Virus record (IMG/VR): IMGVR_UViG_3300032213_001078
Location: 1-61,714 of that record
Origin: a virus
Lineage: Duplodnaviria; Caudoviricetes
Strand: one strand, 5' to 3'
Length of the DNA stretch: 61,714 bases
Position 1 is the first letter of the stretch, and every line of letters starts with the position of its first letter. The notes below the pieces were generated by a model, which worked only from the letters and a program-made list of their open reading frames with translations, did no database searches and had not been told where the DNA came from. Position numbers and translations under genes: made by a program. Below, in pieces: positions 8,768-26,195 of this stretch.

Positions 8768-8770
8768 GAG

Positions 8771-8793: not shown

Positions 8794-8836
8794 ATGTTAC
8801 TAGGAACTTAAACGAATAGATTTGATAGATTTTTCG

Positions 8837-8844
8837 TATATTTG
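8837..8844 (+). promoter_or_regulatory. Bacteroidota-type -7 promoter element TAnnTTTG
   Basis: TATATTTG 15 nt upstream of ATG 8860. Confidence 0.55.
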
Positions 8845-8859
8845 ATTACAATAAAAGTT

Positions 8860-9636
8860 ATGAGATTACAAACATCACCCTACCTCACTAGACAGGAAGA
8901 GTACAGAGACGACCCATGGAAAATGTTAATGGTCTGTTTCATGCTAAATCAAACACATCATAGACAAGTAGACGAAGTTAGAGAACACTTCTTTAACAAA
9001 TGCGGTACAGCAGAACGTTTAATCGATTGTCCGGACGCAGAGATCATAGAGATAATCAAGCCTTTAGGTTTTTATAACAAAAGAGTAAAAGCTTGGAAAC
9101 AGTTCTCTTATGAGTGGTTGGAGTTAGTACAAGAGTATGGCAATCCTATCTATATTCCTACTCACAAACTAATTGGACTTAAAGGAGTTGGTAAGTACGC
9201 AATAGATTCGTGGAGAATATTTCAGTGTAACGAATACGACGACGTAGATCCTGATGATCATGTACTAAACTTCTATGTTGAGTGGGCAAGAGCAGAAAAA
9301 GAGAGAATACTTCGAGAGCAGAACGATGCAAAACCAATGACAGTTTACTACGCACACTACACTAATTCAAGAGAAGAGCAACCTAATTGGAATAGATTAC
9401 AAGATTATGTTTGCTGTGTTATGGCAAGAACTCAAGACGAAGCCATAGAAAAAACTAAACGTATTGCATTAAAAAGAGATGGTGCAGTACACATTAAAAT
9501 TGCAGGTATCGGATTCGGTAGACAGGAGTGGGTAGATGAAGAGAAGTGGTTAGAGACAGACCCAGAATATTATCACATACACACCGAAGCTATGTGGAAG
9601 AGAATGGAAACAAGAAGAATACTAGAAAATAAATAA
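8860..9636 (+). CDS. MBD4-like HhH-GPD DNA glycosylase with extra C-terminal domain
   Basis: DPWKMLMVCFMLNQT, KPLGFYNKR, HhH LKGVGKYAIDSWRIF, VDPDDHVL with catalytic Asp; ATG 8860 preferred to TTG 8842. Confidence 0.85.
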   Translation: MRLQTSPYLTRQEEYRDDPWKMLMVCFMLNQTHHRQVDEVREHFFNKCGTAERLIDCPDAEIIEIIKPLGFYNKRVKAWKQFSYEWLELVQEYGNPIYIPTHKLIGLKGVGKYAIDSWRIFQCNEYDDVDPDDHVLNFYVEWARAEKERILREQNDAKPMTVYYAHYTNSREEQPNWNRLQDYVCCVMARTQDEAIEKTKRIALKRDGAVHIKIAGIGFGRQEWVDEEKWLETDPEYYHIHTEAMWKRMETRRILENK

Positions 9637-9637
9637 C

Positions 9638-10807
9638 ATGATTACAGCAAACCCAAAGTGGATTACAACCACACCGTACTACGAAGAATTTTTACGCTAT
9701 TATCAAATGGCTAAAACACAACAAGAAGAGTGTAACTTAGGAATTATAAAACATGCAGACAGTTCTGTACCTGACGAATTAATGAAACACGTTGAACTAT
9801 ACGACGTGGTTGAAAGAAAGTATGCGGGGTTTTCACAGATTGTTAATGACGTATTTTACGGTTTTTCCGAAGATCACCCTTACTGGAATAAAATGACTCA
9901 AGGTCACATGACAAAACAGAGAGAAACCGTTTCTAAAAATTGGACAGGTAAGCGCGACGTGTTCGGTTTAAGAGAGTGGATCTATTTGTTCTTGTTTCAC
10001 AGATTAACAGGATCTGCTATTAACTATTCGATGAAACCTTCAGGGTATCACAATACGCTTCTGTTCGAGATGCATCAAGCTGACAATATACCTCAGCTAA
10101 TCGACATCATAAAAGGAGCAACTAAACCATTTTACACATCGGTAGGTTATCAGTTCCCAAGTTTCCCTAAACCTCAAGGCAATTACAAACGTGGAGGAGA
10201 TTATTTCCTTTGCGAATTCGTTCCTCAGTTAGCAGAAGACGTAGCTACCTTCTTAGAAACTGGTGGAAAGAAAAACTTGAGAGAAGTAGGAGACTTTATG
10301 TTTAAGTGGAACGCAGACAGAGGACTAAGAGCTTTTAGATTTCAGTACGCTGCATTTATTGCTGACATAGCCGATTGGTTCCCTGAATTTGTTAATCGTG
10401 AAAGTCCATTCTATTACGGTACGAATGCAAAGGAGTGCGTTAGCTATTTAGCAAAGAAGTCTACGAAAATGCCAGAAGAAGTATTTTTGGATTCGGTTAT
10501 GATGAAGATATACGACGACACTGGTAGTTTTCCGTATAACGCTGAGGACGTTGCGTGTGACTCAATTAGATGGATTGAGAACTACGTAAAACCAGGAGCG
10601 GATTACGATCACTTAGATTTCGATCATGTATGGAACAGCAGCAGTATTAAAGACCATCCATACGGTCGTCAGAAAGCAATGTTAGATCTTGGTCTTGTCC
10701 CAAGCTTTAACGGTATTACAGAACACCCTTCCGATGACAAGGTACTTAAATCACTTCTTATAACAGAAGAGCAATACAAGGAAAGGGTACAAGAACATTA
10801 TAAATGA
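9638..10807 (+). CDS. putative DNA base-hypermodification enzyme (aGPT-PPlase / amino acid:DNA transferase-like)
   Basis: FQYAAFIADIADWFP...YYGTNA and NAEDVACDSIRW resemble the G-x-G-A and E-x-x-x-C motifs of this HhH-derived group; paralogous to 11298. Confidence 0.5.
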   Translation: MITANPKWITTTPYYEEFLRYYQMAKTQQEECNLGIIKHADSSVPDELMKHVELYDVVERKYAGFSQIVNDVFYGFSEDHPYWNKMTQGHMTKQRETVSKNWTGKRDVFGLREWIYLFLFHRLTGSAINYSMKPSGYHNTLLFEMHQADNIPQLIDIIKGATKPFYTSVGYQFPSFPKPQGNYKRGGDYFLCEFVPQLAEDVATFLETGGKKNLREVGDFMFKWNADRGLRAFRFQYAAFIADIADWFPEFVNRESPFYYGTNAKECVSYLAKKSTKMPEEVFLDSVMMKIYDDTGSFPYNAEDVACDSIRWIENYVKPGADYDHLDFDHVWNSSSIKDHPYGRQKAMLDLGLVPSFNGITEHPSDDKVLKSLLITEEQYKERVQEHYK

Positions 10808-11298
10808 AACAAACAACACAACGCGATTTTAAAATAAAAGCCACAGGCAATATCGCAGAGAAAATAGTGTACAACCACTTTTCAAAAAAACATCAAGTAG
10901 AAATTAACACAGACGAATTCGGTTATTGGGACATGAAAATTGACGGAGCTACTGTGCAAGTAAAAGCAATTACTCCGTTCGTTAAATTCGACTGTTGGGC
11001 AATTAATGCAGGTAAAACAACACAGAATCTAAACAACATATTCAAGTGCGATAAGTTCTACATCTTATCTTTGCCTTCTAAAGTACCACACGAATTCGAT
11101 GGTTATGTATTAGAGGTAGATCCTAAAGAGTGTATGACTAAAGTATTAGAAGGCTCTTTCAACCCAGAGAAAAAACTTTCTTTGATTATTCCTAGAAACC
11201 CAGCTTACGTGAAAAAGCTTTTTAAAATATCAAAAGAAGAAGAGAAGAATATTTTAGAACACGGTACATCAACATTCAGAAAGAAAAATATAAAATAA
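10804..11298 (+). CDS. PD-(D/E)xK restriction-endonuclease-like protein
   Basis: GNIAEKIV helix, then YWDMKIDG.TVQVKA (D...Q-x-K); overlaps both neighbours. Confidence 0.65.
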   Translation: MKQTTQRDFKIKATGNIAEKIVYNHFSKKHQVEINTDEFGYWDMKIDGATVQVKAITPFVKFDCWAINAGKTTQNLNNIFKCDKFYILSLPSKVPHEFDGYVLEVDPKECMTKVLEGSFNPEKKLSLIIPRNPAYVKKLFKISKEEEKNILEHGTSTFRKKNIK

Positions 11299-12302
11299 TG
11301 AGTGACATTTTATTTCCAAACACTTGCGAAGTAGAATTCAAAGGCAAGAAACCAAAAGACTCTTGGATGCGAGATTGGCCATTAGAGCAACGCATTGAAA
11401 AGTTCTTTGAGTTCTGCCAAAAATACGACACAAGACAAGACGCTTTATTAAAGGACGAGTATCAGATCTTCTCTCATCGCTTACATTGGCACGAACATCC
11501 TTATTGCTATTACATGAGAGATAATGTTACTGATAACGAACTAAGAATGTTTTACACTCTAGTGTTTAGTTTTAGTAACGAGCATTGGGGAACTTTTATG
11601 AAACTTGCAAAAGAAGGCGAAGAAGCAACCAAAGAACACTTCGTTAATAATCGTCATGCTAGAAATGATCTATTTCAGATCTACTACCCAAAAGGTACAG
11701 ACGTTAAGAGTTGGTTATTACACGGACCTAAATTTGCAGGCAGAGATTTAGCATATCTTTTACAAGACGTTGAAGATGGTAAACGCGGACCTTACACAAT
11801 GATGGAGTTCGCTAAGAAGTTAGAGTCTTACTTTAAAGAGCATCAAAACTTTAGAAGTCCTTTGTATCCATGTAAGAACACTGCAAGATACATCGCAATG
11901 AGTTATCCACATTTGGTAGATCCTGAGTCTATTCTATTCGGTGGAACTGGACACTTCGATGGATTGCACCAGATATTCGGTGGTCAGAATCTAAACGGTA
12001 AAGTTAAGTATACTATTAACGAAGCTGGAGCATTCATTCCTGAGAACAAACAGGCTGAGCAATGGTTATATCAGATGGATCTATTAGTGAATCACCCTTC
12101 TAATCCCATGACTTCCCAGAAGTATCTGAACATTGAAGACAAGACGTGTTTCTTTTGGAAGCACATCGCAATCTCTCATGGTGAAAAGAAACCGACCAAG
12201 AATATACCTTACACTTGGATTTTCCCAGACAATTTCAGTTTGGCAAAAGAAGGTCAAGAGGAGTTTTTAGAAGGAATACAGCACAGAAGTCTAATGTATT
12301 AG
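11298..12302 (+). CDS. second putative base-hypermodification enzyme (aGPT-PPlase-like)
   Basis: FFEFC...D.LL..YQIFSHR, FGGTGHFDGLHQIF, NIEDKTCFFWKH. Confidence 0.5.
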   Translation: MSDILFPNTCEVEFKGKKPKDSWMRDWPLEQRIEKFFEFCQKYDTRQDALLKDEYQIFSHRLHWHEHPYCYYMRDNVTDNELRMFYTLVFSFSNEHWGTFMKLAKEGEEATKEHFVNNRHARNDLFQIYYPKGTDVKSWLLHGPKFAGRDLAYLLQDVEDGKRGPYTMMEFAKKLESYFKEHQNFRSPLYPCKNTARYIAMSYPHLVDPESILFGGTGHFDGLHQIFGGQNLNGKVKYTINEAGAFIPENKQAEQWLYQMDLLVNHPSNPMTSQKYLNIEDKTCFFWKHIAISHGEKKPTKNIPYTWIFPDNFSLAKEGQEEFLEGIQHRSLMY

Positions 12303-12324
12303 GATCATATAGTTAGTAAATAAG

Positions 12325-12356
12325 AAAGGGAGCTCATTTGGGCTCCCTTTTATTTT
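12325..12356. terminator. bidirectional intrinsic terminator between convergent blocks
   Basis: AAAGGGAGC-TCATTTGG-GCTCCCTTT-TATTTT. Confidence 0.85.
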
Positions 12357-12379: not shown

Positions 12380-12853
12380 TTATTCCTCTTCGGCCTCGAG
12401 CTCGGGTGTGATTGGATTGACATCCCTGCGATACCATTTGCCTGCTATATTCTCGTTATAGCTTTCTACCTCTAAAACTCTTAGAGTCATTTGATAATAG
12501 GTCTCCCAATAGCTCATCTGTTTCTTCGTGGTGCAAACTCTTAATATATCTCTAGTGAATGCTTCTTTGCCGAATACTTTGATATCCTCTGTGATTAACT
12601 TACTAGAGCCATAATAGTCTGCCCAATTGCTTTCTTTGATCTCTTTTCTTTTCTTTGGGATACGTCCTGGTTTAATCCACTCTGAAATCTCTTTCTTTGT
12701 TAGAATTTTTGTTAGTACGTTTCTAAGGATTTTTTTACCGACGTAGAATTTGCCGGTTTTATTGTTTGTGACTTTGTAGACAAATCCTACAACATCATCT
12801 GGGAAATCTTTTAGTTGAGTAAGCTGTTTCCCTTCATATAACCAATTTGACAT
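12380..12853 (-). CDS. GIY-YIG family protein of T4-like phages
   Basis: GFVYKVTN..TGKFYVGKK, ESNWADYYGS, YNENIAG. Confidence 0.8.
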   Translation of the reverse strand: MSNWLYEGKQLTQLKDFPDDVVGFVYKVTNNKTGKFYVGKKILRNVLTKILTKKEISEWIKPGRIPKKRKEIKESNWADYYGSSKLITEDIKVFGKEAFTRDILRVCTTKKQMSYWETYYQMTLRVLEVESYNENIAGKWYRRDVNPITPELEAEEE

Positions 12854-13185: not shown

Positions 13186-13195
13186 TAATAAATAT
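13186..13195 (-). promoter_or_regulatory. putative late promoter motif
   Basis: ATATTTATTA 4 nt before ATG 13181. Confidence 0.6.
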
Positions 13196-16100
13196 TAGTT
13201 CTCTCGTCTTTCCTCTGGTTTATAGTGAGCGATTCTATTATGGTGAATAGGACTTGCCAATAATACAGATGGTTTTAAATTTCCTTTTTTAGTTTCTTGG
13301 AACATGTAACTCATCCAAGTCTGTTCGTAAGGTCTTTCCCATGTAGTATCTAAGAACATCTTTTGATTGCCTTTCTTTCCGCATATAGTTGGCCAGTTAG
13401 CGTAGTAAACATCTCCAGTAATATAACCTAAACCATCTACGAATTCTATCTTATCGAATACAGTTCTTGGACAATTAGGATCTAATCCATGTTCAGGCAA
13501 TTTATCATAATCAGGATACAACTCTGTTCTTACTGCTTGAGGAATATTGTACCAAGACACTTGAATGTTATTGTCCATATAAACCTCAGTGAAAGATAAT
13601 TTTAAAAAGTCTACATCAGATCCTCCGTGCATTATCTTTAAAATCTTATCGTATAAATTATCTACGCACAATCTAAATCCGTTTCTACAAAATCCAATCT
13701 CTTCTGGTGGGTGAATACCCATATCATCTTCTAAGAATAAGTAATAATCACTATCTGATTCTTGGAAGTGTTTAGCTGCTCTGAATCTACCGCCGTTAAT
13801 TCCCGTATTCTCGTTTGTTATGATATGTTCGAATCCGTATTTCTCACAAAGTTTAGCATTCTCTATTCTTGCTTCTTCGTTAGTAGAGTTATCAATTAAA
13901 ATATTCCTAGTGTTAGTGATAAACTTAGGATGCTTTAACCAAGTTTGAATAGTATGTTCTACTTGATACGGAAAATTAAAGGTCAACATATAGATAGACA
14001 TTTTTAATTTGTCAACGTCTACTATTCTTTTTTGTAATTTAGCTCTACGTTCTGGTATGGCTTCTAATTCTGCGGTATCGTCTAATGCTTTGCTAACAAA
14101 CTCTTGAATGTGTCCGTTAATTCCTATTCTAGTCGCTCTACATAATTCAGGGTATTTTTCTGCTAATATAGAGAATAAGCTTTCTTCTGTACCCATAAGA
14201 CCTTCGTTCAAAGAGTCGTTTAATAAGTGCCAGTAATAAGAATTGACTTCTTTAATAGCTTCTTTGTTTCCACCGAATAATCCTCCTCTACAAATCCACT
14301 CAACAGTTCCACCAGCCATTCTGTTCAATGCATCCCATTCAAATCCGTGTACTTCTTTAACTCCTTGCCCATAATACGGATAAGGATATTGTACGAATAA
14401 GAAAGGATCTAGATATTTTTCTAACTTATCAAAGAATCTTTCTTGGATTAATAAGTTGTAGTTTATAGTGTTTGTAATTCCACCATCTACCCAAACAAAG
14501 TTATCCGATTGAAAAGAATCATATATAGAAGCATCGTGTAATAATGACATCTTTGACATTACGATTGGATTGTACCACTCTAAACTACCTTGTGGAGAAT
14601 CTTTTAACCAACCGGCTCTATTCAACCAATCTTCTGAAGTTCTAATCTCTTGTGCTTTGTCCCAAAAAGGACCAAACATATTTTTAATATCGTCTAATTC
14701 AAAGTATTTAATTGCAGTGTTAGATGTACTTCTTCTTTGCCAAACAAAATCTTCCAATTCTCTTGGTATAAAGATGAACATATTAACATCCACTTTCAAC
14801 AACTTATCGAAACACTCTAAGTAATGATCGAAAGATCTACCAGGTCTACCAATATTCCAAAGACCTGTTACTACAGTTAGTTTATTTTTTTCTTTTTTCC
14901 AATCGTAATTTTCAGGGATTTGTTTTGCAAATGCGATATCAATTGCTTCTACGTCTTGCGCGCCAATTTCGTAAACGTATCCTCCAATTTCTAATTTTTC
15001 TTTTAATGCAGATAACTCTTCTTCAAAAAGATTCATGTGTTCTATTCTAATACACTTAGGTCTGTACTTGGTTAAATCTAATTGTTTAAATATTTCCCAA
15101 TCCATTCCTTCTGTGTCTGTCAAGAACACATCTATTTTTTCTACATTATTATTTTTTAATATAGAATCTAAAGTAAGACACTTTACATTTATTTTTTCTG
15201 AGTAATTGTCTTTTACGAAAATATCTCTGTCATAATCTGATGCGAAACCGTTTCTTGGTGGAAATGCAGTTGCCATTCCTTTATATCCTAGCTGTAAATC
15301 GTATTCTTGTATTTTACTATCAGGAACATACATCATCTCTAAAGTTCCATCGTAATCTGCTACTGCTACATTTTCAAATATGTGATTAGATCGTGTGCTT
15401 AAATTACTTTTTAACTTCTCGTATACTTCAGGTATTGGTTCTACGAATACTCCTCCCCAACTATATCTATCAATATAGCCTCTCATGTCATCGAAAGTAA
15501 TTCCGTCCATTGCTCCCGCTTGAAATACAAATATATCTTTAAAGTTCTGACCTAAATAATGTAAAGCAATCGCTAAAGAATCGTTGTAAGGTTTTTCGTA
15601 TCCAGCTTTTTCTATTGCGCCAATAGGTTGCTCTTCGTACGCAGATACAGACTCTTCATTAAAGTCGGTAATAGAATTTAATTGGCCTTTTCTAGACCCT
15701 GTCTTTTTTATTACTATATAATTTCCATTCCAAAAATATTCATGATCTTTTATTAAAGGAACGATATCTTCTTTTCTGTCAGCAAATAAATTTGTGGCAT
15801 CTCCTCCGCCTCCTAAATCTTCTATAATATAAAAACCACCAAATTTAACTCTTCCGAATAAATTCTTTAATGTTTGCAATTGTGCCTCTGCTTTGTGCAA
15901 TCCGTCGTCTATAATAATATCGTAAGTGTTGGCTTGTAATGCTTGATCTAATTGTTTTTTATCTCTTGAATCGCAAATAAAAGTATTGATTCTGTCTTCT
16001 GAAATTCTACAATCCTCGGCTATATCTAATCCATGTACTTGGGCTTTTGGAAAATAATCTCTCCACACTCTTAAAGATCCGCCTTGTTTGTACTCAGGAT

Positions 16101-16287
16101 AATATAAATTTTGTATTTGTAGAAAGTGACCTTCTACGTTTACATCTAAACTACCCACTCCAACTTCTAATACAGAAGATACTTCTCCTCTAATTTCGTT
16201 AAATAGGAATTCGTACGCTTGAGAGTAACCACTTATTTTTTTATCGGTATAATATTTGTCGATATAAAAATCTAAATTTTTGAACAT
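13195..16287 (-). CDS. four-domain glycan-modifying enzyme: class I SAM methyltransferase + FkbM methyltransferase + HtrL/YibB-like glycosyltransferase + GT-A domain
   Basis: LEVGVG/GGSLRVWRDYFP/DIIIDDGLH/YIIED; QAGAMDG/FVEP/DTEGMD; TVVTGLWNIGR/WVDGG/GGLFGG; YLFLEDD. Confidence 0.75.
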   Translation of the reverse strand: MFKNLDFYIDKYYTDKKISGYSQAYEFLFNEIRGEVSSVLEVGVGSLDVNVEGHFLQIQNLYYPEYKQGGSLRVWRDYFPKAQVHGLDIAEDCRISEDRINTFICDSRDKKQLDQALQANTYDIIIDDGLHKAEAQLQTLKNLFGRVKFGGFYIIEDLGGGGDATNLFADRKEDIVPLIKDHEYFWNGNYIVIKKTGSRKGQLNSITDFNEESVSAYEEQPIGAIEKAGYEKPYNDSLAIALHYLGQNFKDIFVFQAGAMDGITFDDMRGYIDRYSWGGVFVEPIPEVYEKLKSNLSTRSNHIFENVAVADYDGTLEMMYVPDSKIQEYDLQLGYKGMATAFPPRNGFASDYDRDIFVKDNYSEKINVKCLTLDSILKNNNVEKIDVFLTDTEGMDWEIFKQLDLTKYRPKCIRIEHMNLFEEELSALKEKLEIGGYVYEIGAQDVEAIDIAFAKQIPENYDWKKEKNKLTVVTGLWNIGRPGRSFDHYLECFDKLLKVDVNMFIFIPRELEDFVWQRRSTSNTAIKYFELDDIKNMFGPFWDKAQEIRTSEDWLNRAGWLKDSPQGSLEWYNPIVMSKMSLLHDASIYDSFQSDNFVWVDGGITNTINYNLLIQERFFDKLEKYLDPFLFVQYPYPYYGQGVKEVHGFEWDALNRMAGGTVEWICRGGLFGGNKEAIKEVNSYYWHLLNDSLNEGLMGTEESLFSILAEKYPELCRATRIGINGHIQEFVSKALDDTAELEAIPERRAKLQKRIVDVDKLKMSIYMLTFNFPYQVEHTIQTWLKHPKFITNTRNILIDNSTNEEARIENAKLCEKYGFEHIITNENTGINGGRFRAAKHFQESDSDYYLFLEDDMGIHPPEEIGFCRNGFRLCVDNLYDKILKIMHGGSDVDFLKLSFTEVYMDNNIQVSWYNIPQAVRTELYPDYDKLPEHGLDPNCPRTVFDKIEFVDGLGYITGDVYYANWPTICGKKGNQKMFLDTTWERPYEQTWMSYMFQETKKGNLKPSVLLASPIHHNRIAHYKPEERREN

Positions 16288-16297
16288 GTAACTTTTT

Positions 16298-17941
16298 TTA
16301 TTTCAGTATGTAATAATCTTCTAATAGCAAACCATCCATTTGTGTAGACTCTAAAATTTTAAAGGCTTCTTTAATCGTAGAAAGAATAGGACTTCCATCA
16401 ACATTAAAAGAGGTATTCAATAAAACTCCTACTCCTGTTTTTCTATCCATTTCGGTTAATAAATTGTACAACCATTCGTTGTCTTCTTTAGTAACTGTTT
16501 GAACTCTAGCTGTTCCATCTACGTGAGTGATAGCCGTTAATTTCTCTCTCCACTCTTCTTTAACTTTAGGGCAGAAACTCATCCACTTAGATTCTCCTTC
16601 CCATTCAAAATACTTAGATACATCTTCAAGTCTAACTACTGGTGCGAATGGTCTGTACCACTCTCTGTGTTTTACTTTTTCGTTAAGTATATCTTTCATA
16701 TCTGGAATAGACGGATTGCAAAGAATGCTTCTATTTCCTAAAGCACGAGGTCCATGTTCTGCTCTTCCTCTTGCAACACCGATGATTCTACCTTCGATAA
16801 GATCATCTGTCATTTTATCTATGTTGAAATAAGTAGTAGTAGTATTGTAAAAGTTTTGAATATAATGACCGAGAGAATCTATATCAAACAATTCAAGACC
16901 AGAATAAGTAGCATCAAAAGGTTCTTGTGGCTTTAATTGGTTTAACATTAAACCTAAAGCAATACCACAATCGTTAGGATTAGGTCCAACAAATACTTTT
17001 TTATTAAACTCTTTAACTAATCTAGTATTCAATAAGATATTCAATCCGCATCCTCCTGCCATACAGATAGGCAAATCAGGGTATTTTTCAAAATAAGGTT
17101 TTGCATACTCTAAAAAACATTCTTCGAATGCTCTCTGAGAAGTAGCAGCCACATCGTAAGCTGTCTGATCTAGCAATCTGTTTTTTATGTCGAAAGTAAC
17201 ACCTATGTTTTTTCCTAATTCATTAATCTTATTTTCGTAATCGTAGTAACCTGTTTCGTCCCATGGCCCAAAGTGATTTCCATTAGGTCCGCTCTTGTAA
17301 AAATGAATGAAATGAGGTACCCACTCTTCTATTACATTTCCGTAAGAAGCGAGTCCCATAATTTTACCAGAGTATACTAAGTTGCCTATGTTAAGAGGTT
17401 CTTTTTTAATATCGCCTAAATACTCTCCAAATACCATATAAGAAAATCCTAAGTCATAAAAAATATGCGGATTATTTTCATAAGGATTTAAAACTGATTC
17501 TAGCAATTTAGGAGATTCACCTCTTAAGCAATGGTAGATATTAAAAAATCCATCGTTACCTCCACCGTCGAAAGAGAAAGCTAAAGCTTCTTGATAAGGA
17601 GACTGATAGAAACATCCTGCAACATGAGCTTCGTGATGCTTGCCGTGAATGTAATTATCTGCTTTAATAAAAGTTTCTAGCTGGTATCTCTCTTCCATTA
17701 TTACATCTGTATTCATGCAATAACAGTTCTCAAACTTATCTATATTAAATTTTTTCTTTAAAAAGTTTGGAATATACTCTGATAAGAATAATAAATCTGC
17801 ATTCTTAGGACACATGTACTGTGCCATTCCGCTATTCTTATAATTTAAAAATCTTTCTACTTCTAATACGGTTAATATTTTTCCGTTCTCTTCTACTACA
17901 TACGCTGAGTTGTGTGAACCGTAGAATGCTATATTCGCCAT
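16298..17941 (-). CDS. O-carbamoyltransferase, NodU/CmcH family
   Basis: HHEAH, DGGG, GKIMGLASYG, GPRALGNRSIL, REWYRPFAP, HVDGTARVQTV, LNTSFN. Confidence 0.92.
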   Translation of the reverse strand: MANIAFYGSHNSAYVVEENGKILTVLEVERFLNYKNSGMAQYMCPKNADLLFLSEYIPNFLKKKFNIDKFENCYCMNTDVIMEERYQLETFIKADNYIHGKHHEAHVAGCFYQSPYQEALAFSFDGGGNDGFFNIYHCLRGESPKLLESVLNPYENNPHIFYDLGFSYMVFGEYLGDIKKEPLNIGNLVYSGKIMGLASYGNVIEEWVPHFIHFYKSGPNGNHFGPWDETGYYDYENKINELGKNIGVTFDIKNRLLDQTAYDVAATSQRAFEECFLEYAKPYFEKYPDLPICMAGGCGLNILLNTRLVKEFNKKVFVGPNPNDCGIALGLMLNQLKPQEPFDATYSGLELFDIDSLGHYIQNFYNTTTTYFNIDKMTDDLIEGRIIGVARGRAEHGPRALGNRSILCNPSIPDMKDILNEKVKHREWYRPFAPVVRLEDVSKYFEWEGESKWMSFCPKVKEEWREKLTAITHVDGTARVQTVTKEDNEWLYNLLTEMDRKTGVGVLLNTSFNVDGSPILSTIKEAFKILESTQMDGLLLEDYYILK

Positions 17942-17944
17942 TTA

Positions 17945-19222
17945 TTAATTATTTATTTGATATTCTATTCTTTCAACCCAACCTTCTTCTTCTGTGAATC
18001 CCCAAAATACTACTCTTGTCGGTTTTTCATCTGTTAAGAAAAACTCTTCGTAATGTATTTGTTGTCCTTTGTGCATAAAGTTTTCCAATTCTGGTCCAGT
18101 AATATACTTGTGATTTACTGCTTTACCAGTTGCATCGTCAAACGCTACTAAGATATGTTTGTAATTCTTTCTTGGAAAATCATGAGGATGTATAGTTACC
18201 AAATGATAGAAAGATCCCATGAAAGACTGCTCCCATAATTCGTCGTCTGCGATGTATGGATTAGGCGGATAGTTATTGTCTAATGTAAACTTCTGAACCG
18301 CTTTTCTTTTAAAGTGGAATCCAGCATACTTTTCAAAATCTCTTAAAGATCTCACTGTACCTAAATCGTATCCAGTCAAATCAATAGTTGGATCTTCTTC
18401 AGTTCTTAACAATACTCTAATTTTCTTTCTTGCGTATTCTTGTTTTTGGAACCAATCTACTCCTAACTTATAATCATCGTCCCACTTCAACATACCAGAT
18501 CTCTCTTCTCTCATAGTAGAATGCCAAACAACTAACTTGTGGGGATGGAATAAATCGTATCCATGAGTGTAAGACCTAACTGTTAAGTTTAATTCTTCTC
18601 CACTAAAATAAATATCGGTATCGTGTCTTATCTCTTTTGCCCATTCAGATCTAGCAAAACAGAAGTGACCTGATAAAAATCTACTCATAGGTGGTTCAGT
18701 CATATCTTGCCAACCGTGTAATAAACCTGGTCTGATGAAGATAGTTCCGTGAGGATAGAAGCAAGCGAAGGTTTGCTGCCATGGCTCCATAGTACGTCCT
18801 TCTGGATCGTTAAATGGTGTATATAAAGGTAAATAAGCCCCTAAGATTGGTTTGTAACCTTGAGCTTCTAAACCGCTATGCATTTCGATTAAAGTCTCGT
18901 CCCAATCTTTTGCAAATCTGTGATGAGAATCTAACTGTAGAATATAGTCTTGATTGGTTAAAAGTTTCTCGTTGATTTGAGCTCTTGCCCATGGTAGACC
19001 TTCGGCTTCGGTGTATAAAACGTCCATAATATGGAAACGTTTGTCGCCTCTAAATTCGTCTACGTTATCGAACTTATCTTCTGGGTTGTATTGTCTACAA
19101 ATACCGAAGTGAACTCTTTTTGGATACTTAGCTTGTGCTAAAGCATCTTTGATTGTTGGTACTAATTCCGGATCTCTATAAGATGGAAGATGCACCAAAA
19201 TTGTAGGTTGTTTCTTTGCCAT
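17945..19222 (-). CDS. GT60-like (Pfam GlcNAc) polypeptide N-acetylglucosaminyltransferase, copy B
   Basis: SYRDPEL.PT, QLDSHHRF..WD, FLSGHF.F, YFSGEE..L.VRSYTHGYDLF.P. Confidence 0.85.
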   Translation of the reverse strand: MAKKQPTILVHLPSYRDPELVPTIKDALAQAKYPKRVHFGICRQYNPEDKFDNVDEFRGDKRFHIMDVLYTEAEGLPWARAQINEKLLTNQDYILQLDSHHRFAKDWDETLIEMHSGLEAQGYKPILGAYLPLYTPFNDPEGRTMEPWQQTFACFYPHGTIFIRPGLLHGWQDMTEPPMSRFLSGHFCFARSEWAKEIRHDTDIYFSGEELNLTVRSYTHGYDLFHPHKLVVWHSTMREERSGMLKWDDDYKLGVDWFQKQEYARKKIRVLLRTEEDPTIDLTGYDLGTVRSLRDFEKYAGFHFKRKAVQKFTLDNNYPPNPYIADDELWEQSFMGSFYHLVTIHPHDFPRKNYKHILVAFDDATGKAVNHKYITGPELENFMHKGQQIHYEEFFLTDEKPTRVVFWGFTEEEGWVERIEYQINN

Positions 19223-19274
19223 AACAGAATTTAAAACTTTTATTTTATATTTGTATCTTTATCTTTTTAGTAGA

Positions 19275-20948
19275 TTAATATTCAGAAGATGTTGCACTTA
19301 TAGTTCCGTTACCATTTGCACTATAATTGTAAAGATCGCTAGCAAATGGAATTCCTTCTGCGACGTCATTATATATTTCAGTTCCTGCATCGTAAACTAT
19401 TAAACTAGTTTGTGCTATTAGTGGACTTGTTGCACCTGCGCTGACTGATACTCCTATTGCAGCGCCTATAGGTACTGTTATTTGTCCGCTAGTAGTAGAT
19501 GTCGCGTTAACTGGTGTATTACCGTTTACTGTTATAGTAAAGTTTCCGCTTTGAGCAAATTGTGAAAAATCATAGTCAATTGTGTATGTAGATGGAGCAG
19601 CGCTTGTAGAAACTGAAGGCGTTACTGATATGCTTGGTGTAGCTGTTATAGAAACACTTGGAGTAACTGATATGCTTGGTGTAGCTGATATAGAAACAGA
19701 AGGCGTAACTGATTCTGAAGGAGTTCTTGTTATAGATACAGAAGGAGTTACAGATTCACTAGGAGTTCTTGTTATAGACACGCTTGGAGTTACAGATTCT
19801 GAAGGAGTTCTTGTTATAGATACAGAAGGAGTTACAGATTCACTAGGAGTTCTTGTTATAGAAACTGAAGGTGTAACTGATACGCTTGGTGTGACTGATA
19901 CTGTAATACTAGGTGTTACTGATATGCTAGGAGTTCTGGTTATAGTTACGCTTGGAGTAATAGAAATACTAGGCGTAGCGGATATTGTGATACTAGGTGT
20001 TCTTGTTATTGAAACAGATGGAGTAACTGTTATTGATGGCGTTACTGTTATGCTTGGAGTTACTGATACGCTAGGAGTTACAGAAATAGAAGGCGTTACT
20101 GTTACGCTTGGAGTAACTGAAATACTAGGAGTTACTGAGACACTCGGAGTTACAGATATACTAGGAGTAGCAGATACAGATACACTTGGAGTAACTGATT
20201 CACTTGGAGTTACTGAAGAACTAGGCGTTCTTGTTGGTGTAATTGAAGGCGTAGGCGATATTGATTCGCTTGGCGTTATTGATACCGATGGTGTATTAGA
20301 AACAGTTATCGATGGAGTTATAGAAATAGTAGGTGTAATACTTGCACTAGGAGTTCTAGTCACCGATGGAGTTACAGATATCGAAGGAGTAAGTGAAACG
20401 CTTGGAGTCTCTGAAGGAGATACCGTAGGAGTATTAGTAACAGAAATACCAGGAGTTACTGATATAGTTGGGGTTATCGATATCGTAGGTGTAATAGATA
20501 TACTAGGAGTAGCTGAAGGCGTTCTAGTTGGAGTACGAGTAACACTTGGAGTTATCGATATGGTAGGTGTAATGCTTGGAGTAAAACTTGGAGTTCTAGA
20601 AGCATTAGGCGTAATAGTAGGTGTAACTGTAGGAGTAAGAGAAACTGATGGTGTAACACTCAAACTTGGTGTCGCACTAACAGAAGCGCTTGGAGTTTCA
20701 CTTGGGGTTATAGATAAAGATGGAGTAACCGAAGGCGTGATAGACGTAGAAGGCGTAAGAGAATAAGGCACTCCATCCTGAGGCGGACCTGGAACGTATG
20801 TGTTTGCAAAAGCCTGCGCTACAGCTTCTTGTGCAAAAGGAATGTTTCTACTCCTTGTGCGATTTTCGTAAAGATTGTTATTGTCGTTTTTAGCATCCGC
20901 AGCCTGTGGGCCTTTGGCTAAACTAGACTTTAAATTTATTAGAGGCAC
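19275..20948 (-). CDS. mucin-like Thr/Pro/Ser-repeat protein with C-terminal beta-rich domain
   Basis: About 385 aa of T-P-S-h-(S/T)-h repeats; GTG start behind a late motif. Confidence 0.8.
   Translation of the reverse strand: MPLINLKSSLAKGPQAADAKNDNNNLYENRTRSRNIPFAQEAVAQAFANTYVPGPPQDGVPYSLTPSTSITPSVTPSLSITPSETPSASVSATPSLSVTPSVSLTPTVTPTITPNASRTPSFTPSITPTISITPSVTRTPTRTPSATPSISITPTISITPTISVTPGISVTNTPTVSPSETPSVSLTPSISVTPSVTRTPSASITPTISITPSITVSNTPSVSITPSESISPTPSITPTRTPSSSVTPSESVTPSVSVSATPSISVTPSVSVTPSISVTPSVTVTPSISVTPSVSVTPSITVTPSITVTPSVSITRTPSITISATPSISITPSVTITRTPSISVTPSITVSVTPSVSVTPSVSITRTPSESVTPSVSITRTPSESVTPSVSITRTPSESVTPSVSITRTPSESVTPSVSISATPSISVTPSVSITATPSISVTPSVSTSAAPSTYTIDYDFSQFAQSGNFTITVNGNTPVNATSTTSGQITVPIGAAIGVSVSAGATSPLIAQTSLIVYDAGTEIYNDVAEGIPFASDLYNYSANGNGTISATSSEY
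19598..20763 (-). repeat. TPS hexa/octapeptide tandem repeat; exact 68-bp duplication at 19711 and 19795
   Basis: Repeat visible in protein and DNA; 84-bp period in the TPSESVTPSVSITR block. Confidence 0.9.
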
Positions 20949-20958
20949 GCGTGTTTTG

Positions 20959-20967
20959 TATAAATAT
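20959..20967 (-). promoter_or_regulatory. putative late promoter motif
   Basis: ATATTTATA 10 nt before GTG 20948. Confidence 0.6.
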
Positions 20968-20978
20968 TTAGTAAAAGC

Positions 20979-22238
20979 TTATTCGTAGCTAATCTTGTCC
21001 TCAATTCTTTCCATCCAGCCTTTGGATGCGCTATGAGGCCAAACTCTCCATGAAACTGGCTGCTTATCGCTTTCGTATTCTCTCCATATTTGAATAAAAT
21101 GATCGTCTTTGTTCATATTCATAAGACCTTTTAACTCTTCTCCAGAAATGTCTTGTCTATATAAGTCTTTTCCTTCTGAGTCTAGGAAAGCTACCGCAGC
21201 TGAATCGTAGTCTGTTTCTGTCAAAGATCCCTTATACACATTTATACAATACTTTATCTTACTAATTAGTCCTGTTTCGTAGTCTGAAATTATTGGAGGA
21301 AACTGATTGGCTATAGTCTCTTGGTGAATCTGTCTTGTTTTAAACTTAAGACCTGCATACTTTTCATAATCTTCTAAAGTTCTCTCAGTTCCAAATCCGA
21401 AACCTTCTAAAGATCTTCTCTTACAAGGAGGACATCCGCCTGGGTCCATTTCGAATAAGGCTCTAAATCTTGCGTAAGAGGCTTTGTCTAAATCATTAAA
21501 AGTTGAGTGATCGTCCCAATGTCTTTGCTTTCCGTTTCTAGTGTATTCGTGCCAAACGATAGGTCTGTGAGGTGAGAATAGATCGTATCCATGAGTGTAT
21601 GCTCTAGCAGATAAACTGGTCTCTTCTCCATGAAAATAAAACTTAGGATCGTAAGGTACTTCTTTTACAAATTTGCCTAAAGTAAAGATAAAGTGTCCTG
21701 ATAAGAATCTACTTTTGAATGGCTCAGTTCTGTTCTCCCAATTTGGTACATGAAATGGTTGTAAGAACACCGCGCCTTCAGGTAGAAATCTCATGATATT
21801 TAATCCCCACACCTCTTGCACTCTGCCTGCTGGATCGTTATCTGGAAAATACCCTGGAATGTACGCAGATAAAATTGGTTTTTTGTGACCTTTAACTTGT
21901 AAGTAACTAACGTAGTCCTTCAAAGTTCTATCCCAATTTTTTGTAAATCTATGATGAGAATCTAGTTGAAAGTAGTAGTCTTCTCCGTTGTAATAATCTT
22001 GAATTTTATTTCTTACCCAACAAACTCCTAAAGAATCCTTATGATCAATGTCCAATATGGTGAATCTGTCGTCTCTAACGAATTCATTTAGATTGTCCCA
22101 AGTGTCCTCTTCAGAGTGTTGCCAACCCACGCATATGTGCAAGTTTTCTGGTTCTTGACAGTTATTGATTAGATCACGTAAAGTTGGTAAAAGTTCGGGG
22201 TCCCTATAGGCCGCTATCGAAACGAAGATTTTTGACAT
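20979..22238 (-). CDS. GT60-like (Pfam GlcNAc) polypeptide N-acetylglucosaminyltransferase, copy A
   Basis: IFVSIAAYRDPELLPTL, QLDSHHRF..WD, VPYDP.FYFHGEE.SLSARAYTHGYDLFSP. Confidence 0.88.
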   Translation of the reverse strand: MSKIFVSIAAYRDPELLPTLRDLINNCQEPENLHICVGWQHSEEDTWDNLNEFVRDDRFTILDIDHKDSLGVCWVRNKIQDYYNGEDYYFQLDSHHRFTKNWDRTLKDYVSYLQVKGHKKPILSAYIPGYFPDNDPAGRVQEVWGLNIMRFLPEGAVFLQPFHVPNWENRTEPFKSRFLSGHFIFTLGKFVKEVPYDPKFYFHGEETSLSARAYTHGYDLFSPHRPIVWHEYTRNGKQRHWDDHSTFNDLDKASYARFRALFEMDPGGCPPCKRRSLEGFGFGTERTLEDYEKYAGLKFKTRQIHQETIANQFPPIISDYETGLISKIKYCINVYKGSLTETDYDSAAVAFLDSEGKDLYRQDISGEELKGLMNMNKDDHFIQIWREYESDKQPVSWRVWPHSASKGWMERIEDKISYE

Positions 22239-22292
22239 AACCCAATATTAATCAATTTTTGAAACTTAATAAAATTTTAGTTTAAAGTGATA

Positions 22293-23936
22293 CTAAGCAA
22301 AAGCATTACAGTTCGTGTCAATACCAACAGTAACCGTGGTAACGCCTCTAGTAAAAGTGCTGCCTGGGTAATATGGAGATCCATCTATGTATACAACGTT
22401 GTATATCCTATACGCACTAAATCCGTAAATAGCGTAAGTTCCTGTGCCAACATTAAATGATCCAAACTGACCTTTTGTTACCGTTGAAGACGAACTATTA
22501 CCTATAGATCCTTCAGATGGTCCAATACAATCAGGACCAAGATACATATCAGCACTTATACCATAAGGAGAATCTATAGTGAAATTTCCATCTACGGCAT
22601 CACTTAAATTATATACGAAAACATATTCCCCACCCGCGTTTTGGAATACTCCAGAAATATATAAGAAAGCAGATGTTGGGTAACTAAAATTAGTGTAACC
22701 TCTCACATAATAAGTTCTACCTCCAACTACACTAAATGTTTTATTTGTATTAGAGTTGTAATCTACTGTAGTATCGTTGATTGTATTACCAGCACTATCG
22801 GTTACCAATAATCTTCTTGTTGAAGTTCCGTAAAGCGGTTTTGGATAATCAATGATATTTCCTGTGGCTTGTGCAAATAAAGAATCGTCCTGGAATATTG
22901 TTCCTCCAGTGTATAAAACGTCACCAGGAGTTGTGAATACCTCGTTGACAATATTACTTCCATTTTGATTAACAGCTACATTTCCATCTAAGAAAACTGT
23001 ACCATCATTGTATTCAGAGTTATTATAGTATAACGCTGTGATTGTTAAAGGACTTCTTGATGGTGTAATACTAGGAGTTCTTGATATTGAAATAGTAGGA
23101 GTTCTTGTTATAGAAACAGACGGTGTTACAGATTCTGAAGGCGTTCTTGTTATAGAAACCGATGGAGTTACAGACTCGCTAGGAGTTCTTGTTATAGAAA
23201 CAGAAGGCGTAACTGAAGTACTTGGAGTTCTTGTTACTGTAACACTAGGCGTAACTGATACGCTAGGAGTATTACTTATAGAAATAGAAGGAGTAACAGA
23301 ATTACTAGGCGTTCTTGTTATAGAAACACTTGGTGTAACTGATACACTAGGAGTATTACTTATAGAAACTCCCGGTGTTAAAGATATACTAGGTGTAGCC
23401 GATATAGAAACGCTAGGTGTTCTTGATACCGTTACACTAGGAGTAACTGAAACCGAAGGAGTAACAGATATGCTTGGAGTAACTGAAACCGACGGCGTTA
23501 CTGAAGAAGCCGGCGTAACTGATATCGATGGTGTTACAGATACAGATGGAGTAACAGATATACTAGGCGTAGCAGATATGGATACGCTTGGCGTCGCACT
23601 AGGCGTAACTGAAACTGTAACTGAAGGAGTAACAGATATCGAAGGTGTAGCTGAGATGGATACGCTCGGAGTAACTGAGAACGAAGGCGTAACTGATGGA
23701 GATGGAGTAGGACTTATAGGAACAATGTATCTAAAGTTACTATTTTGTCCGCAAGGATCCATATTTTCTAAAACTATATATTCTGCCGCATCAGGTACAG
23801 ATACTACGTAACCAGCATCTAGTTTGGAGGCCATAACGTTTTGTTCAACTATATTGTTAAAGTTGTCCCAATAGATAGTAAAAGGACCTGTTGCCATTCC
23901 TCTCTTAGTAATTTGTATGTATATCGATTGTGCCAT
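22293..23936 (-). CDS. mucin-like TPS-repeat protein with globular N- and C-terminal domains (tail appendage candidate)
   Basis: About 220 aa TPS repeat between a 70-aa N-domain and a 250-aa Y/G/T/N-rich C-region. Confidence 0.8.
   Translation of the reverse strand: MAQSIYIQITKRGMATGPFTIYWDNFNNIVEQNVMASKLDAGYVVSVPDAAEYIVLENMDPCGQNSNFRYIVPISPTPSPSVTPSFSVTPSVSISATPSISVTPSVTVSVTPSATPSVSISATPSISVTPSVSVTPSISVTPASSVTPSVSVTPSISVTPSVSVTPSVTVSRTPSVSISATPSISLTPGVSISNTPSVSVTPSVSITRTPSNSVTPSISISNTPSVSVTPSVTVTRTPSTSVTPSVSITRTPSESVTPSVSITRTPSESVTPSVSITRTPTISISRTPSITPSRSPLTITALYYNNSEYNDGTVFLDGNVAVNQNGSNIVNEVFTTPGDVLYTGGTIFQDDSLFAQATGNIIDYPKPLYGTSTRRLLVTDSAGNTINDTTVDYNSNTNKTFSVVGGRTYYVRGYTNFSYPTSAFLYISGVFQNAGGEYVFVYNLSDAVDGNFTIDSPYGISADMYLGPDCIGPSEGSIGNSSSSTVTKGQFGSFNVGTGTYAIYGFSAYRIYNVVYIDGSPYYPGSTFTRGVTTVTVGIDTNCNAFA
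23047..23718 (-). repeat. TPS hexa/octapeptide tandem repeat
   Basis: Same repeat units as at 19598-20763. Confidence 0.9.
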
Positions 23937-23942
23937 TTTCTA

Positions 23943-25124
23943 TTAACAAGTTGAAATTTGTGATCCTACTTGACCTCCACTTACTGCAAATATTTGACCA
24001 GAACTGTTTGCTATAGCCGTTATATTTGTAAATAAGACGTTGTAAGATTGATATAAATAAACGCCTGGTGCAACGTTATTTACTCCAATACCAAAGAATA
24101 CGTTATCTTTATTCGCTACAGGGAATCCACTAGACTGTATAAAGCAAGGATCATATTGTGCGCCTACAGTAGTTCCTAATATAGGTGTTAATGATACGGT
24201 AGGAGTAGGTGTAGGAGTTACAGATACTGTAGGAGTTCTCGTAGGCGTAATTGATACTGAAGGAGTAGCTGTAGGAGTAAGAGACGCAAACGGGGTAATT
24301 GTCTGAGTTACACTAGGTGTAAGTGATACTGAAGGCGTTACACTTATTGTTACTGTAACAGAAGGCGTAATACTTGGAGTAATTGAAATACTAGGCGTTA
24401 CACTTACGCTAACTGAAACGCTCGGTGTTCTTGTTGGCGTAATAGAAACAGAAGGCGTTCTTGTTGGAGTAACAGAAGGCGTAACAGAAGGCGTTAAGAA
24501 CGGAGTCAAAGATACGCTTGGTGTAGGAGTAGGACTAGGAAGAATAGCTTGAATAAAGAAATCAAACGTAGGATCTTGGAAGATACAAACGTAATCAGGA
24601 TCTGTAAACACTATAACTCCTTGAGCGTAAAATATGTTTCCTACTTTTCTATTTCCAACTAAAGCATCTATTAAGTTACCGTTTCCGTCGTCAACAATAT
24701 GATAGTTGGTACTATCTGGATTTAAAGGCAATAAGTGCAAAGTATTTCTTGCTACTTGCTCACCAAATTCGTTTCTTGGAATATAGAAAAAAGAGATTTG
24801 AGAATTAGGAGAGGTGGGAAAATATCTTGCATCCTCATCACCAGATCCTGATGCGGCAGTAGATTGCCACTGAGGATCGTAACCACTACCTGTCGCCAAT
24901 AGAGAACCAGAAATATATTCTTTGTAATAGAGCTGTTTGATCAACTCGTAGTTAAGAGCGTTATTATCCAATGAGCCAGTCACGGTCATAGGATGATTAA
25001 AGCCCCTATTTATCGTGATTCCAACATCGTCTAAAGATTGACTATAATATGATGAAGAATACTTTAATTTAATAGGAGCTGAAGATATGTCTGAAAACCT
25101 TATCGTATTCTTCGAGCTGCTCAT
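23943..25124 (-). CDS. virion structural protein N-terminal module fused to a TPS-repeat tail
   Basis: IPRNEFGE, IVDDGNGNL, VGNIFYAQGVIVFT align with the N-half of ORF 25134; then about 120 aa TPS repeat. Confidence 0.75.
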   Translation of the reverse strand: MSSSKNTIRFSDISSAPIKLKYSSSYYSQSLDDVGITINRGFNHPMTVTGSLDNNALNYELIKQLYYKEYISGSLLATGSGYDPQWQSTAASGSGDEDARYFPTSPNSQISFFYIPRNEFGEQVARNTLHLLPLNPDSTNYHIVDDGNGNLIDALVGNRKVGNIFYAQGVIVFTDPDYVCIFQDPTFDFFIQAILPSPTPTPSVSLTPFLTPSVTPSVTPTRTPSVSITPTRTPSVSVSVSVTPSISITPSITPSVTVTISVTPSVSLTPSVTQTITPFASLTPTATPSVSITPTRTPTVSVTPTPTPTVSLTPILGTTVGAQYDPCFIQSSGFPVANKDNVFFGIGVNNVAPGVYLYQSYNVLFTNITAIANSSGQIFAVSGGQVGSQISTC

Positions 25125-25133
25125 TGTTTATTT

Positions 25134-26195
25134 TTACCAGTCTAATTTAACTCTAATTAATGCCTCTTTCGTAAAGTCTTTAACTAAAGGTTTTGACATT
25201 TTAGCTACAGCCAACAATTCGTTATTGTCATTGTACATACCAACAGTTGTAGGGAATGTTTGAGGACTGTTAATGAAGTTAGAATAAACCAAGTTACCAG
25301 AACCAGATATGAATGAAGGGTTACTAGTGTAGTTGTATTCTCCGTTTTTAACTCTTACAAATACATAGTTAGAAGAGATTGTTTCTTGAGAATTTAATTG
25401 GAATCCAGATCCAGTTACAGAGAAAGCTCTAGCTCCACTTACAAATAATTCTAAAACTTTAGAATGATTGAATCCACCTAAAGCTGGTAAAGTACTACCG
25501 GTCATTTGTACGTTTAAACCTCCTGAACCAACTGGCAATGCCAAAGCTGATGGGTTTAAAATGATCGTGCCCATATCAGGTAAGTAGAAACCATAAGATC
25601 CAGCAGTTGTGTATCCTTTTGAAGCTCCCGCTAATGTTGGAGATGATGCAGCACTACCGTTAGATCCTGAAATTAAATTGTATAATCTTCCACCGTCAAC
25701 GTAAGTTATAGTAGAGATATCGTTTGAGTTATCGGTTAAAGATAATAAAGCAGATCCTGTGCCCAATACTAAGTTAAAAGTACCTGGCATTAAACTCTCT
25801 TTGTATCTGTTTCTATCAACAGGAAGAGCAATTAAATTTAAAGAAGAGGTTACTCCAGTTCCGTTATAAGAGAAATCTACTAAAGACTCAGCGTCTCCGT
25901 AAATTAAGTTTCTGTACTGTCCAAAAGTAATTCTACTTGGAGTATTTTGAGGGATCAACGGATTTAAAGGCGCTGAACCAGAACCGAAAGCGTGTCCGTA
26001 AGCAATAGAAAATTGAACTGCAGCATTGCTAAGATTAGATGCTGTTTGATACACATCTAAGTAATAACTTCCTGTAGCATTACCTGCTAAAGTAAAAAAT
26101 TGAGTAAGAACAGGAGAATTTGTGCTCCATGCTGGTGCTGTTACCGAATCTGCTGAGATCACAAAGTCTGTTGCGTCTAATCTTGAGAATGACAT
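25134..26195 (-). CDS. virion structural protein (tail/baseplate region)
   Basis: S/G/T/N-rich; TTVGMYNDNNELLAVAK motif typical of tail-fibre attachment domains. Confidence 0.7.
   Translation of the reverse strand: MSFSRLDATDFVISADSVTAPAWSTNSPVLTQFFTLAGNATGSYYLDVYQTASNLSNAAVQFSIAYGHAFGSGSAPLNPLIPQNTPSRITFGQYRNLIYGDAESLVDFSYNGTGVTSSLNLIALPVDRNRYKESLMPGTFNLVLGTGSALLSLTDNSNDISTITYVDGGRLYNLISGSNGSAASSPTLAGASKGYTTAGSYGFYLPDMGTIILNPSALALPVGSGGLNVQMTGSTLPALGGFNHSKVLELFVSGARAFSVTGSGFQLNSQETISSNYVFVRVKNGEYNYTSNPSFISGSGNLVYSNFINSPQTFPTTVGMYNDNNELLAVAKMSKPLVKDFTKEALIRVKLDW

Follow-up and report, generated by a model that had tools for sequence, protein, structure and literature searches.

Two divergent glycosylase-fold enzymes of a phage operon related to known DNA hypermodification systems

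What reaction is carried out by a pair of helical, glycosylase-like enzymes that a phage encodes directly behind a true DNA glycosylase, and on which base of the phage DNA would it take place? The question is raised by IMGVR_UViG_3300032213_001078, a 61.7-kb fragment of an uncultured tailed phage (Caudoviricetes) whose positions 1 to 61,714 are hereafter termed the window. An operon spanning positions 8860-12302 of the + strand consists of four open reading frames (ORFs), named here g1, A, g3 and B. A sequence-only reading had viewed this operon as a module that writes, repairs and discriminates a modified base, assembled from two transferases, a glycosylase and a nuclease and related to enzymes acting on phosphorylated 5-hydroxymethyluracil (5hmU). 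The cassette is a chemically uncharacterised variant of known DNA hypermodification systems. On balance, g1-A-(g3)-B and a second locus probably make up a conserved phage system by which a C5-substituted pyrimidine of the phage's own DNA, most likely 5-hydroxymethylcytosine (5hmC), is hypermodified after replication.

Fold, active site and kinship of A and B

AlphaFold2 models of A (predicted local distance difference test, pLDDT, 95.2; predicted template-modelling score, pTM, 0.92) and of B (pLDDT 93.5, pTM 0.91) were compared by VIA-align with about 48,000 representatives of the Protein Data Bank (PDB). Both models find their best match in the same entry, 8z2m_A, which is PaMx11 gp46, a 5-phosphomethyldeoxyuridine (5-PmdU) glycinyltransferase, that is, a glycine:DNA transferase. 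The match of A has a Z of 9.6 and a root-mean-square deviation (rmsd) of 4.1 over 206 residues, while that of B has a Z of 9.5 and an rmsd of 4.1 over 224 of 287 residues, with the next match at Z 7.0. Ranks 1-14 for A and 1-11 for B are occupied throughout by proteins of the helix-hairpin-helix (HhH) glycosylase fold, 8z2m being followed by QNG1/DUF2419, AGOG/Ogg, AlkA/Mag and EndoIII/NTHL1 enzymes. Foldseek finds no PDB match of A at E ≤ 1e-3; AGOG and Ogg glycosylases head its list of weak matches. In the BFVD collection of viral models both proteins match entries named HMUDK_hel, Pplase1 or amino acid:DNA transferase (AADT) at probabilities of 0.75-1.0. For A these include, at 0.84-1.0, the SP10 5-hmdU DNA kinase (E 3.9e-3) and HMUDK_hel/Pplase1 proteins, with the PhiW-14, phiRSL1 and Pplase1 entries at 0.97-1.0; for B, rank 2 is a homologue of A (E 4.1e-4), HMUDK_hel proteins come next, and phiRSL1 is matched with E 8.8e-3 and TM-scores of 0.52/0.50. 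The ESM Atlas clusters nearest to A and B partly bear PF18723 or PF18724. Thus, A and B display the HhH-glycosylase fold that the sequence-only reading had supposed for them, and the closest solved relative of both is an amino acid:DNA transferase.

The two proteins share a conserved late motif. In an alignment of 51 sequences of the A family Glu-303 and Cys-307 are invariant and Asp-304 nearly so, while Glu-280, Asp-281 and Cys-284 are invariant in 58 sequences of the B family. A and B thus read E-D-x-x-C where the AADTs of M6 and PhiW-14 read E-T-x-x-C, with equal spacing. A metal on O4 of the flipped thymine is held in place in PaMx11 gp46 by Glu-243 and Thr-244, with Cys-247 as the proposed nucleophile (PMC11472151); M6 gp51 and ViI gp247 require both the conserved Cys and a neighbouring Glu (PMC8989533). 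Mainly because the E-D-x-x-C motif of A and B matches the spacing of the transferases, Cys-dependent chemistry at pyrimidine C6/C5, and not base excision, would be expected of them.

The two proteins are not significantly similar by BLASTP (best E 1.3). Profile-profile comparison with hhalign links them at 74.5% probability (E 2.7e-5), rising to 90.4% (E 1.4e-6, 137 columns) with a more diverse B alignment, against E 0.15 for a reversed-sequence control. The alignment pairs Glu-303, Asp-304 and Cys-307 of A with Glu-280, Asp-281 and Cys-284 of B, and the aligned stretch holds the late motifs which had earlier been noticed as shared and which now prove to reflect true homology rather than chance. 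Judged from these profiles, A and B are distant and divergent paralogues. Neither has any match among Pfam, PHROG or NCBIfam models, and the operon as well as both proteins lack DNA or protein matches in a collection of cultured phages, from which the record of the window itself may have been masked. A protein search of metagenomes retrieves 951 sequences related to A and 444 related to B. At the 50% level, a set of 1.84 billion proteins holds 147 representatives of the A family. Of 80 viral loci with A, 76 have B behind it and 62 have a match to g1.

Partner genes and the target base

The nearest complete relative of the phage (G001, 174 kb) encodes an A protein 99% identical to that of the window, which maps to about 69.8-126.3 kb of this genome. 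Two further genes, S and P, lie at 0.5-3.1 kb of G001, 113 kb from A, beside GroES/GroEL and DNA polymerase A. Each of them is present in five of the six long records with A, and in all three records that are at least 90% complete. In a second arrangement, found in G004 (256 kb, terminal repeats; locus L078), one operon holds, in this order, a g1-like gene, S, A, B, P, a GT2 gene and a UDP-galactopyranose mutase gene, with DNA polymerase B past one further ORF beyond the cassette operon. Thus, g1-A-(g3)-B is part of a larger conserved set that includes an SGNH-like protein S and a pyridoxal phosphate (PLP)-like protein P encoded elsewhere. The module of the sequence-only reading survives as regards A, B and g1 and is enlarged by S and P, while its nuclease component, g3, falls away for the reasons given below.

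In some phages S is fused to A itself. Seven of the 147 A representatives carry an N-terminal extension of ~300-400 residues, and all seven display, by eye, the motifs GDSHS and GNID(I/V)R. The A-fused extension therefore appears, by these motifs, to be SGNH/GDSL-like and not a P-loop kinase. A kinase identity of the extension was considered and rejected on the GDSHS/GNIDIR motifs and the lack of any Pfam kinase match; Pfam gives no confident match of any kind in the extensions. A different N-terminal extension of ~110 residues, non-SGNH-like and with no Pfam match, is carried by another A-family representative, P0253 (494 aa).

Two further features accompany S and P in some lineages. Between S and P of G001 lies a 229-aa ORF (L100:1440-2129) with an N-terminus that by eye is lipoprotein-like; it is restricted to the closest relatives and missing from many other P loci. 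In the G004 operon P is immediately succeeded by the GT2 gene and the mutase gene (GLF, E 5e-79; L078:13137-15417), a pair that may point to a furanose sugar being added in this lineage.

The identity of the substrate is suggested by a thymidylate synthase (TS)-like gene. Of the 76 P loci, 53 are informative in having more than 2.5 kb of sequence downstream, and in 53 of these 53 a TS-like gene lies downstream of P, also where P is 97-99% identical to that of G001. The gene order of L116 runs GroES, GroEL, a 190-aa ORF, S, the 229-aa ORF and P, followed by DUF6378, dUTPase, a flavodoxin-like protein, deoxycytidine monophosphate (dCMP) deaminase and the TS-like protein. In close relatives dCMP deaminase (E 3.9e-27) and dUTPase (E 1e-23) adjoin the TS-like gene. 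The flavodoxin-like/NADPH-dependent FMN reductase gene of L116 (8628-9206, E 5.1e-23), located between dUTPase and dCMP deaminase, is absent in L120.

The TS-like proteins of L116, G002, G003 and G004, all four that were aligned, carry Asp at the position of ThyA 177 and Asp at 143 (D-x-x-C), and retain Asp-169 (R-S-x-D). The same three Asp residues occur in gp42 of the T4-like phage RB5. In contrast, Asn is found at position 177 in the T4-like TS and in the deoxyuridine monophosphate (dUMP) hydroxymethylases of SP10 and ViI; the comparison leaves out the TS-like sequences of M6 and PhiW-14. In PMC13326640 a dCMP hydroxymethylase is distinguished by replacement of ThyA Asn-177 with Asp, replacement of Leu-143 with an acidic residue and retention of Asp-169. 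By these criteria the linked TS homologue bears the hydroxymethyl-dCMP signature, and not that of a dUMP, methyl-dCMP or 5-hydroxy-dCMP enzyme. An assignment as 5-hydroxycytosine synthase was rejected on the Asp-169 to Asn criterion of the same source. The best match of the TS-like protein among cultured phages is annotated as deoxycytidylate 5-hydroxymethyltransferase (40.7% identity, E 4e-43).

Because the linked TS homologue has this dCMP-hydroxymethylase signature, the target is more likely 5hmC than 5hmU or its phosphorylated form, and the 5hmU assumed in the sequence-only reading is probably wrong. The search for a dCMP deaminase, TS homologues and a 5hmU DNA kinase which that reading had proposed yields the first two in relatives, and no kinase bearing the helical domain HMUDK_hel (PF18723) in any of five long related records, P-loop kinase domains as such not being searched. 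Tet/JBP enzymes are likewise found in none of the five.

The best surviving alternative is that the DNA substrate of A and B is thymidine-derived 5hmU, or an activated form of it, as in M6, ViI, PaMx11, SP10 and PhiW-14, with g1 policing unmodified 5hmU. All characterised members of the superfamily act on 5hmU derivatives (PMC8989533, PMC11472151), and the dCMP deaminase and dUTPase beside the TS-like gene could feed a dUMP pool. Nevertheless, this alternative is unlikely when set against the Asp at ThyA 177 in all four cassette-linked TS homologues where the SP10 and ViI enzymes have Asn, the empty searches for an HMUDK_hel-bearing kinase and for Tet/JBP, and an A-fused domain that is SGNH-like and not a P-loop kinase.

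The glycosylase g1, the insert g3 and the surrounding operon

The product of g1 matches the Pfam HhH-GPD family (PF00730) with E 4e-7 (30.8 bits, cut-off 26.2), and its residues ~6-150 match MBD4 glycosylase domains with E 1.4e-19 to 4e9e_A (phmmer against PDB sequences), which bears out its earlier description as MBD4-like. The hairpin motif GVGKYAIDSWRIF of g1 is aligned with GIGKYGNDSYRIF of MBD4, and the motif DPDDHVLNFY that comes next is aligned with HPEDHKLNKY. Asp-116 of g1 is aligned with the Asp of MBD4 GNDSYRIF, which we take to be the catalytic Asp, and is kept in all 38 related loci whose match spans the site. The resemblance to the human and mouse MBD4 glycosylase domains (PDB 4e9e, 1ngn) thus covers the HhH signature GxGKYxxDSxRIF and the motif DP.DH.LN.Y. 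In contrast to MBD4, g1 is phage-encoded, heads a modification operon and lacks a methyl-CpG-binding domain, no MBD family being among its Pfam matches at E ≤ 1. It also has an additional C-terminal portion of ~100 residues (~150-258, window 9310-9636) with no family match in Pfam; a sub-threshold DUF2188 match (E 0.034) is all that is seen there. MBD4 excises T and 5hmU.

With a true glycosylase at the head of the operon, A and B, which sit behind it, might themselves excise, bind or salvage bases in repair, in anti-defence or as QNG1-like hydrolases, with the linkage to S and P reflecting nucleotide metabolism only. The structural matches next to 8z2m give this view some substance, since they include the queuine-salvage DUF2419/QNG1 proteins (Z 8.3-8.4 for A, 6.8-6.9 for B) as well as 8-oxoG and alkyl-base glycosylases. 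The transferase 8z2m is nevertheless the best match of both proteins, for B by 2.5 Z units over the next, the invariant E-D-x-x-C equals the nucleophile motif of the transferases, and a paralogous pair accompanied by a PLP-like enzyme recalls the make-up of known hypermodification clusters (PMC8989533). We therefore hold a role outside base modification to be rather improbable, slightly more so than action on 5hmU.

The third ORF, g3, has no match in Pfam, PHROG, NCBIfam or PDB sequences. Among the 76 loci with both genes, A and B adjoin each other directly in 36 and are separated by an insert in 40. The inserts comprise the g3 allele of the window, alleles that are 25-44% identical, a 1.6-kb multi-ORF piece (L043, L056) and, in L054:6890-7450, an ORF unrelated to g3 which by eye has an HNH-like motif and has no Pfam match. 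Thus, the A|B junction is a hotspot of variable inserts and g3 does not belong to the core of the module. The pattern, like that of free-standing mobile endonucleases, fits a mobile-type nuclease insert that would lie outside the chemistry. The role of discriminating modified from unmodified DNA, which the sequence-only reading had given to g3 as a functional fourth member, is very improbable: translational coupling through the overlaps of its start and stop codons and the invariance of Glu-19, Asp-43, Gln-52 and Lys-54 in all ten aligned alleles (a PD-(D/E)xK-like signature with Gln in place of Asp/Glu) would suit it, and phages with modified DNA often encode nucleases against unmodified host DNA, but the gene is missing from nearly half of the loci having A and B, its place is taken by divergent or unrelated ORFs, and a SegE-type gene follows immediately downstream.

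That SegE-type GIY-YIG homing-endonuclease-like gene (SegE_GIY-YIG, E 3.2e-29 in Pfam) is convergent with the operon and also has PHROG matches annotated 'homing endonuclease', and its homologues stand 3' of B in most related loci.

The tight four-gene operon described from the sequence agrees with the ORF coordinates (Table 1), g1 and A being separated by a 1-nt gap, A and g3 overlapping in ATGA and g3 and B in TAATG. The terminator claimed behind B is also real, with a stem of 12 pairs, six of them G-C, followed by a T run, and it is reported on the - strand as well. The claimed promoter is not confirmed, as a sigma-70-type scan, which cannot test a phage-specific late promoter, lists zero + strand sites at 8770-8860; such sites number 8 overall against 13.3 in shuffled sequences. 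Elsewhere the window encodes baseplate, terminase, portal and primase genes. Adjoining the baseplate genes is a long run of tailoring genes, whose products might act on the virion, the host surface or the DNA. They include two glycosyltransferases (phrog_24687), three phrog_15511 paralogues, a 1030-aa protein resembling methyltransferases and a Nol-like carbamoyltransferase (E 1.1e-120).

Table 1 Features of the operon and its flank in the window
Feature	Position	Strand	Description
g1	8860..9636 (alternative TTG start 8842)	+	258 aa, MBD4-type HhH-GPD glycosylase domain
A	9638..10807	+	389 aa, HhH-glycosylase fold, aGPT-Pplase/AADT superfamily
g3	10804..11298	+	164 aa, variable insert, PD-(D/E)xK-like signature
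B	11298..12302	+	334 aa, HhH-glycosylase fold, distant paralogue of A
Intrinsic terminator, bidirectional	12324..12351	.	Separates B from the convergent SegE-like gene
SegE-like gene	12380..12853	-	GIY-YIG homing-endonuclease-like
Tailoring-gene run	13195..26195	-	Adjoins baseplate genes

Proposed chemistry and relation to known systems

In the hypermodification of 5hmC that we favour, deoxycytidine would be replaced by its 5-hydroxymethyl derivative before replication. S would then stand in place of the DNA kinase of the thymidine pathway by activating or processing the 5-CH2OH group, for example as an ester. The Cys of A, of B or of both would add to C6 and expel the leaving group, and a nucleophile would be added to the exocyclic methylene so formed. 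P would supply or trim this nucleophile, perhaps an amino acid. Finally, g1 may remove 5hmU or T opposite G, which would arise from deaminated modified cytosines and go unrepaired by the host uracil glycosylase. The roles of S, P and g1 in this scheme are our inference. In its most specific form, in which a kinase-less chemistry at the polymer level combines SGNH ester activation, the C6-thiol/exocyclic-methylene route of A and B, a fold-type-II PLP enzyme and MBD4-type proofreading to yield an undescribed non-sugar derivative of 5hmC in the virion DNA of this lineage, the scheme is possible but falls somewhat short of probable.

Several observations weigh against this interpretation. As regards the fold, Z values of about 9.5 are middling, and the tool warns that with helical proteins a Z under about 13 may lack specificity; the assignment is nevertheless considered real because the match lists consist consistently of HhH-glycosylase-fold proteins. 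As regards sequence, PF18723 and PF18724 give no Pfam match to A or B at E ≤ 1. Among the 51 relatives of A, PF18723 is touched by one (E 0.01, below the 25-bit cut-off), and PF18724 is not among the families matched at E ≤ 0.1. Searches of A and B against PDB sequences (phmmer and profile searches) return chance-level rows or none. Comparison of A and B by hhalign with small PF18723/PF18724 alignments of 3-4 sequences (members from ViI, M6, SP10 and PhiW-14) yields nothing significant (best E 0.0044, 7.8% probability), a result which is uninformative because the known clades 1 and 2 are not linked to each other either. The proposed equivalence of Cys-307 and Cys-284 to Cys-247 of gp46 derives from motif spacing.

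The partner proteins are open to similar objections. S is called SGNH-like from motifs recognised by eye and from one sub-threshold Lipase_GDSL match, in G004 (E 0.0082). The P homologues match PALP below the cut-off in G004 (E 7e-5) and G003 (E 0.0054), and have no Pfam match in G001 and L116. The window itself contains no S, P or TS-like gene by tblastn at E ≤ 1e-3, in agreement with the earlier statement, true as it was made, that neither a hydroxymethylase nor a kinase lies in it. In G001 there is likewise no match to PF00303, PF02511 or PF12851 or by tblastn (TS family, ThyX, Tet/JBP). This genome, although rated '100% complete', breaks 551 nt after P, inside the dUTPase gene (L100:1-256), so that for this lineage the link to a TS gene is drawn from synteny in other contigs. 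Since synteny places the missing dCMP deaminase and TS-like genes beyond the break, the completeness estimate appears to hide a gap. The notion that the phage lacks any hydroxymethylase was rejected, the break falling where every informative relative carries the TS-like gene. Finally, the dCMP deaminase and dUTPase neighbours would also suit a dUMP-based route.

The closest described systems are those of the AADTs (formerly aGPT-Pplase clade 2, PF18724), namely M6 gp51, ViI gp247, PhiW-14 gp109 and PaMx11 gp46/PUGT (8z2m). A and B share with them the HhH-glycosylase-like helical fold, the late-helix Glu and Cys at identical spacing (E-[T/D]-x-x-C) and the occurrence as a paralogous pair accompanied by a PLP enzyme, the last as reported in PMC8989533. 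In contrast to the AADTs, A and B are without a Pfam match, are 5-11% identical to them in structural alignments, are longer, at 389 and 334 aa compared with 287, and have Asp where the AADT motif has Thr. The cassettes also differ, as that of A and B is linked to a dCMP-type hydroxymethylase, no DNA kinase was found with it, and the partners are SGNH-like and PLP-like proteins, the latter of PALP type and not of decarboxylase type.

A second group of relatives, the HMUDK_hel proteins (formerly aGPT-Pplase clade 1, PF18723) of SP10 (gp186), PhiW-14 and phiRSL1, resembles A and B in Foldseek probability (0.75-1.0, with TM-scores of 0.38-0.52 to several members) and, by eye in a reference alignment, in the motifs G-x-G...G[IL]...F and E...C. 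The A domain, like clade 1, is also found fused to an N-terminal enzyme domain; the fused domain is SGNH-like where clade 1 has a P-loop kinase, and the PF18723 match is sub-threshold and confined to a single A relative. With the T-even hmC pathway (gp42 and glucosyltransferases) the lineage shares a TS homologue that has Asp-177, Asp-143 and Asp-169 like T4-type gp42, although this protein is short (212 aa) and 31% identical to T4-type gp42. The lineage has, either as substitutes for sugar transferases or alongside them, glycosylase-fold enzymes predicted to be Cys-dependent, together with SGNH-like and PLP-like proteins.

No publication describing the cassette was found in a literature search whose coverage stopped short of subscription journals and supplements, and Figure 2 and the contig lists of PMC8989533 might include relatives. 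The characterised members of the transferase superfamily all act on kinase-activated 5hmU. If the present interpretation is true, a kinase-less version on the hmC route would extend Cys-dependent group transfer at C5 to cytosine, and would imply a new activation chemistry and predict that abundant aquatic phages, as yet uncultured, contain a novel DNA base. Such bases influence the evasion of restriction and CRISPR and supply tools for DNA labelling. In the same case, g1 would exemplify a virus equipped to repair for itself the products that form when its modified base deaminates.

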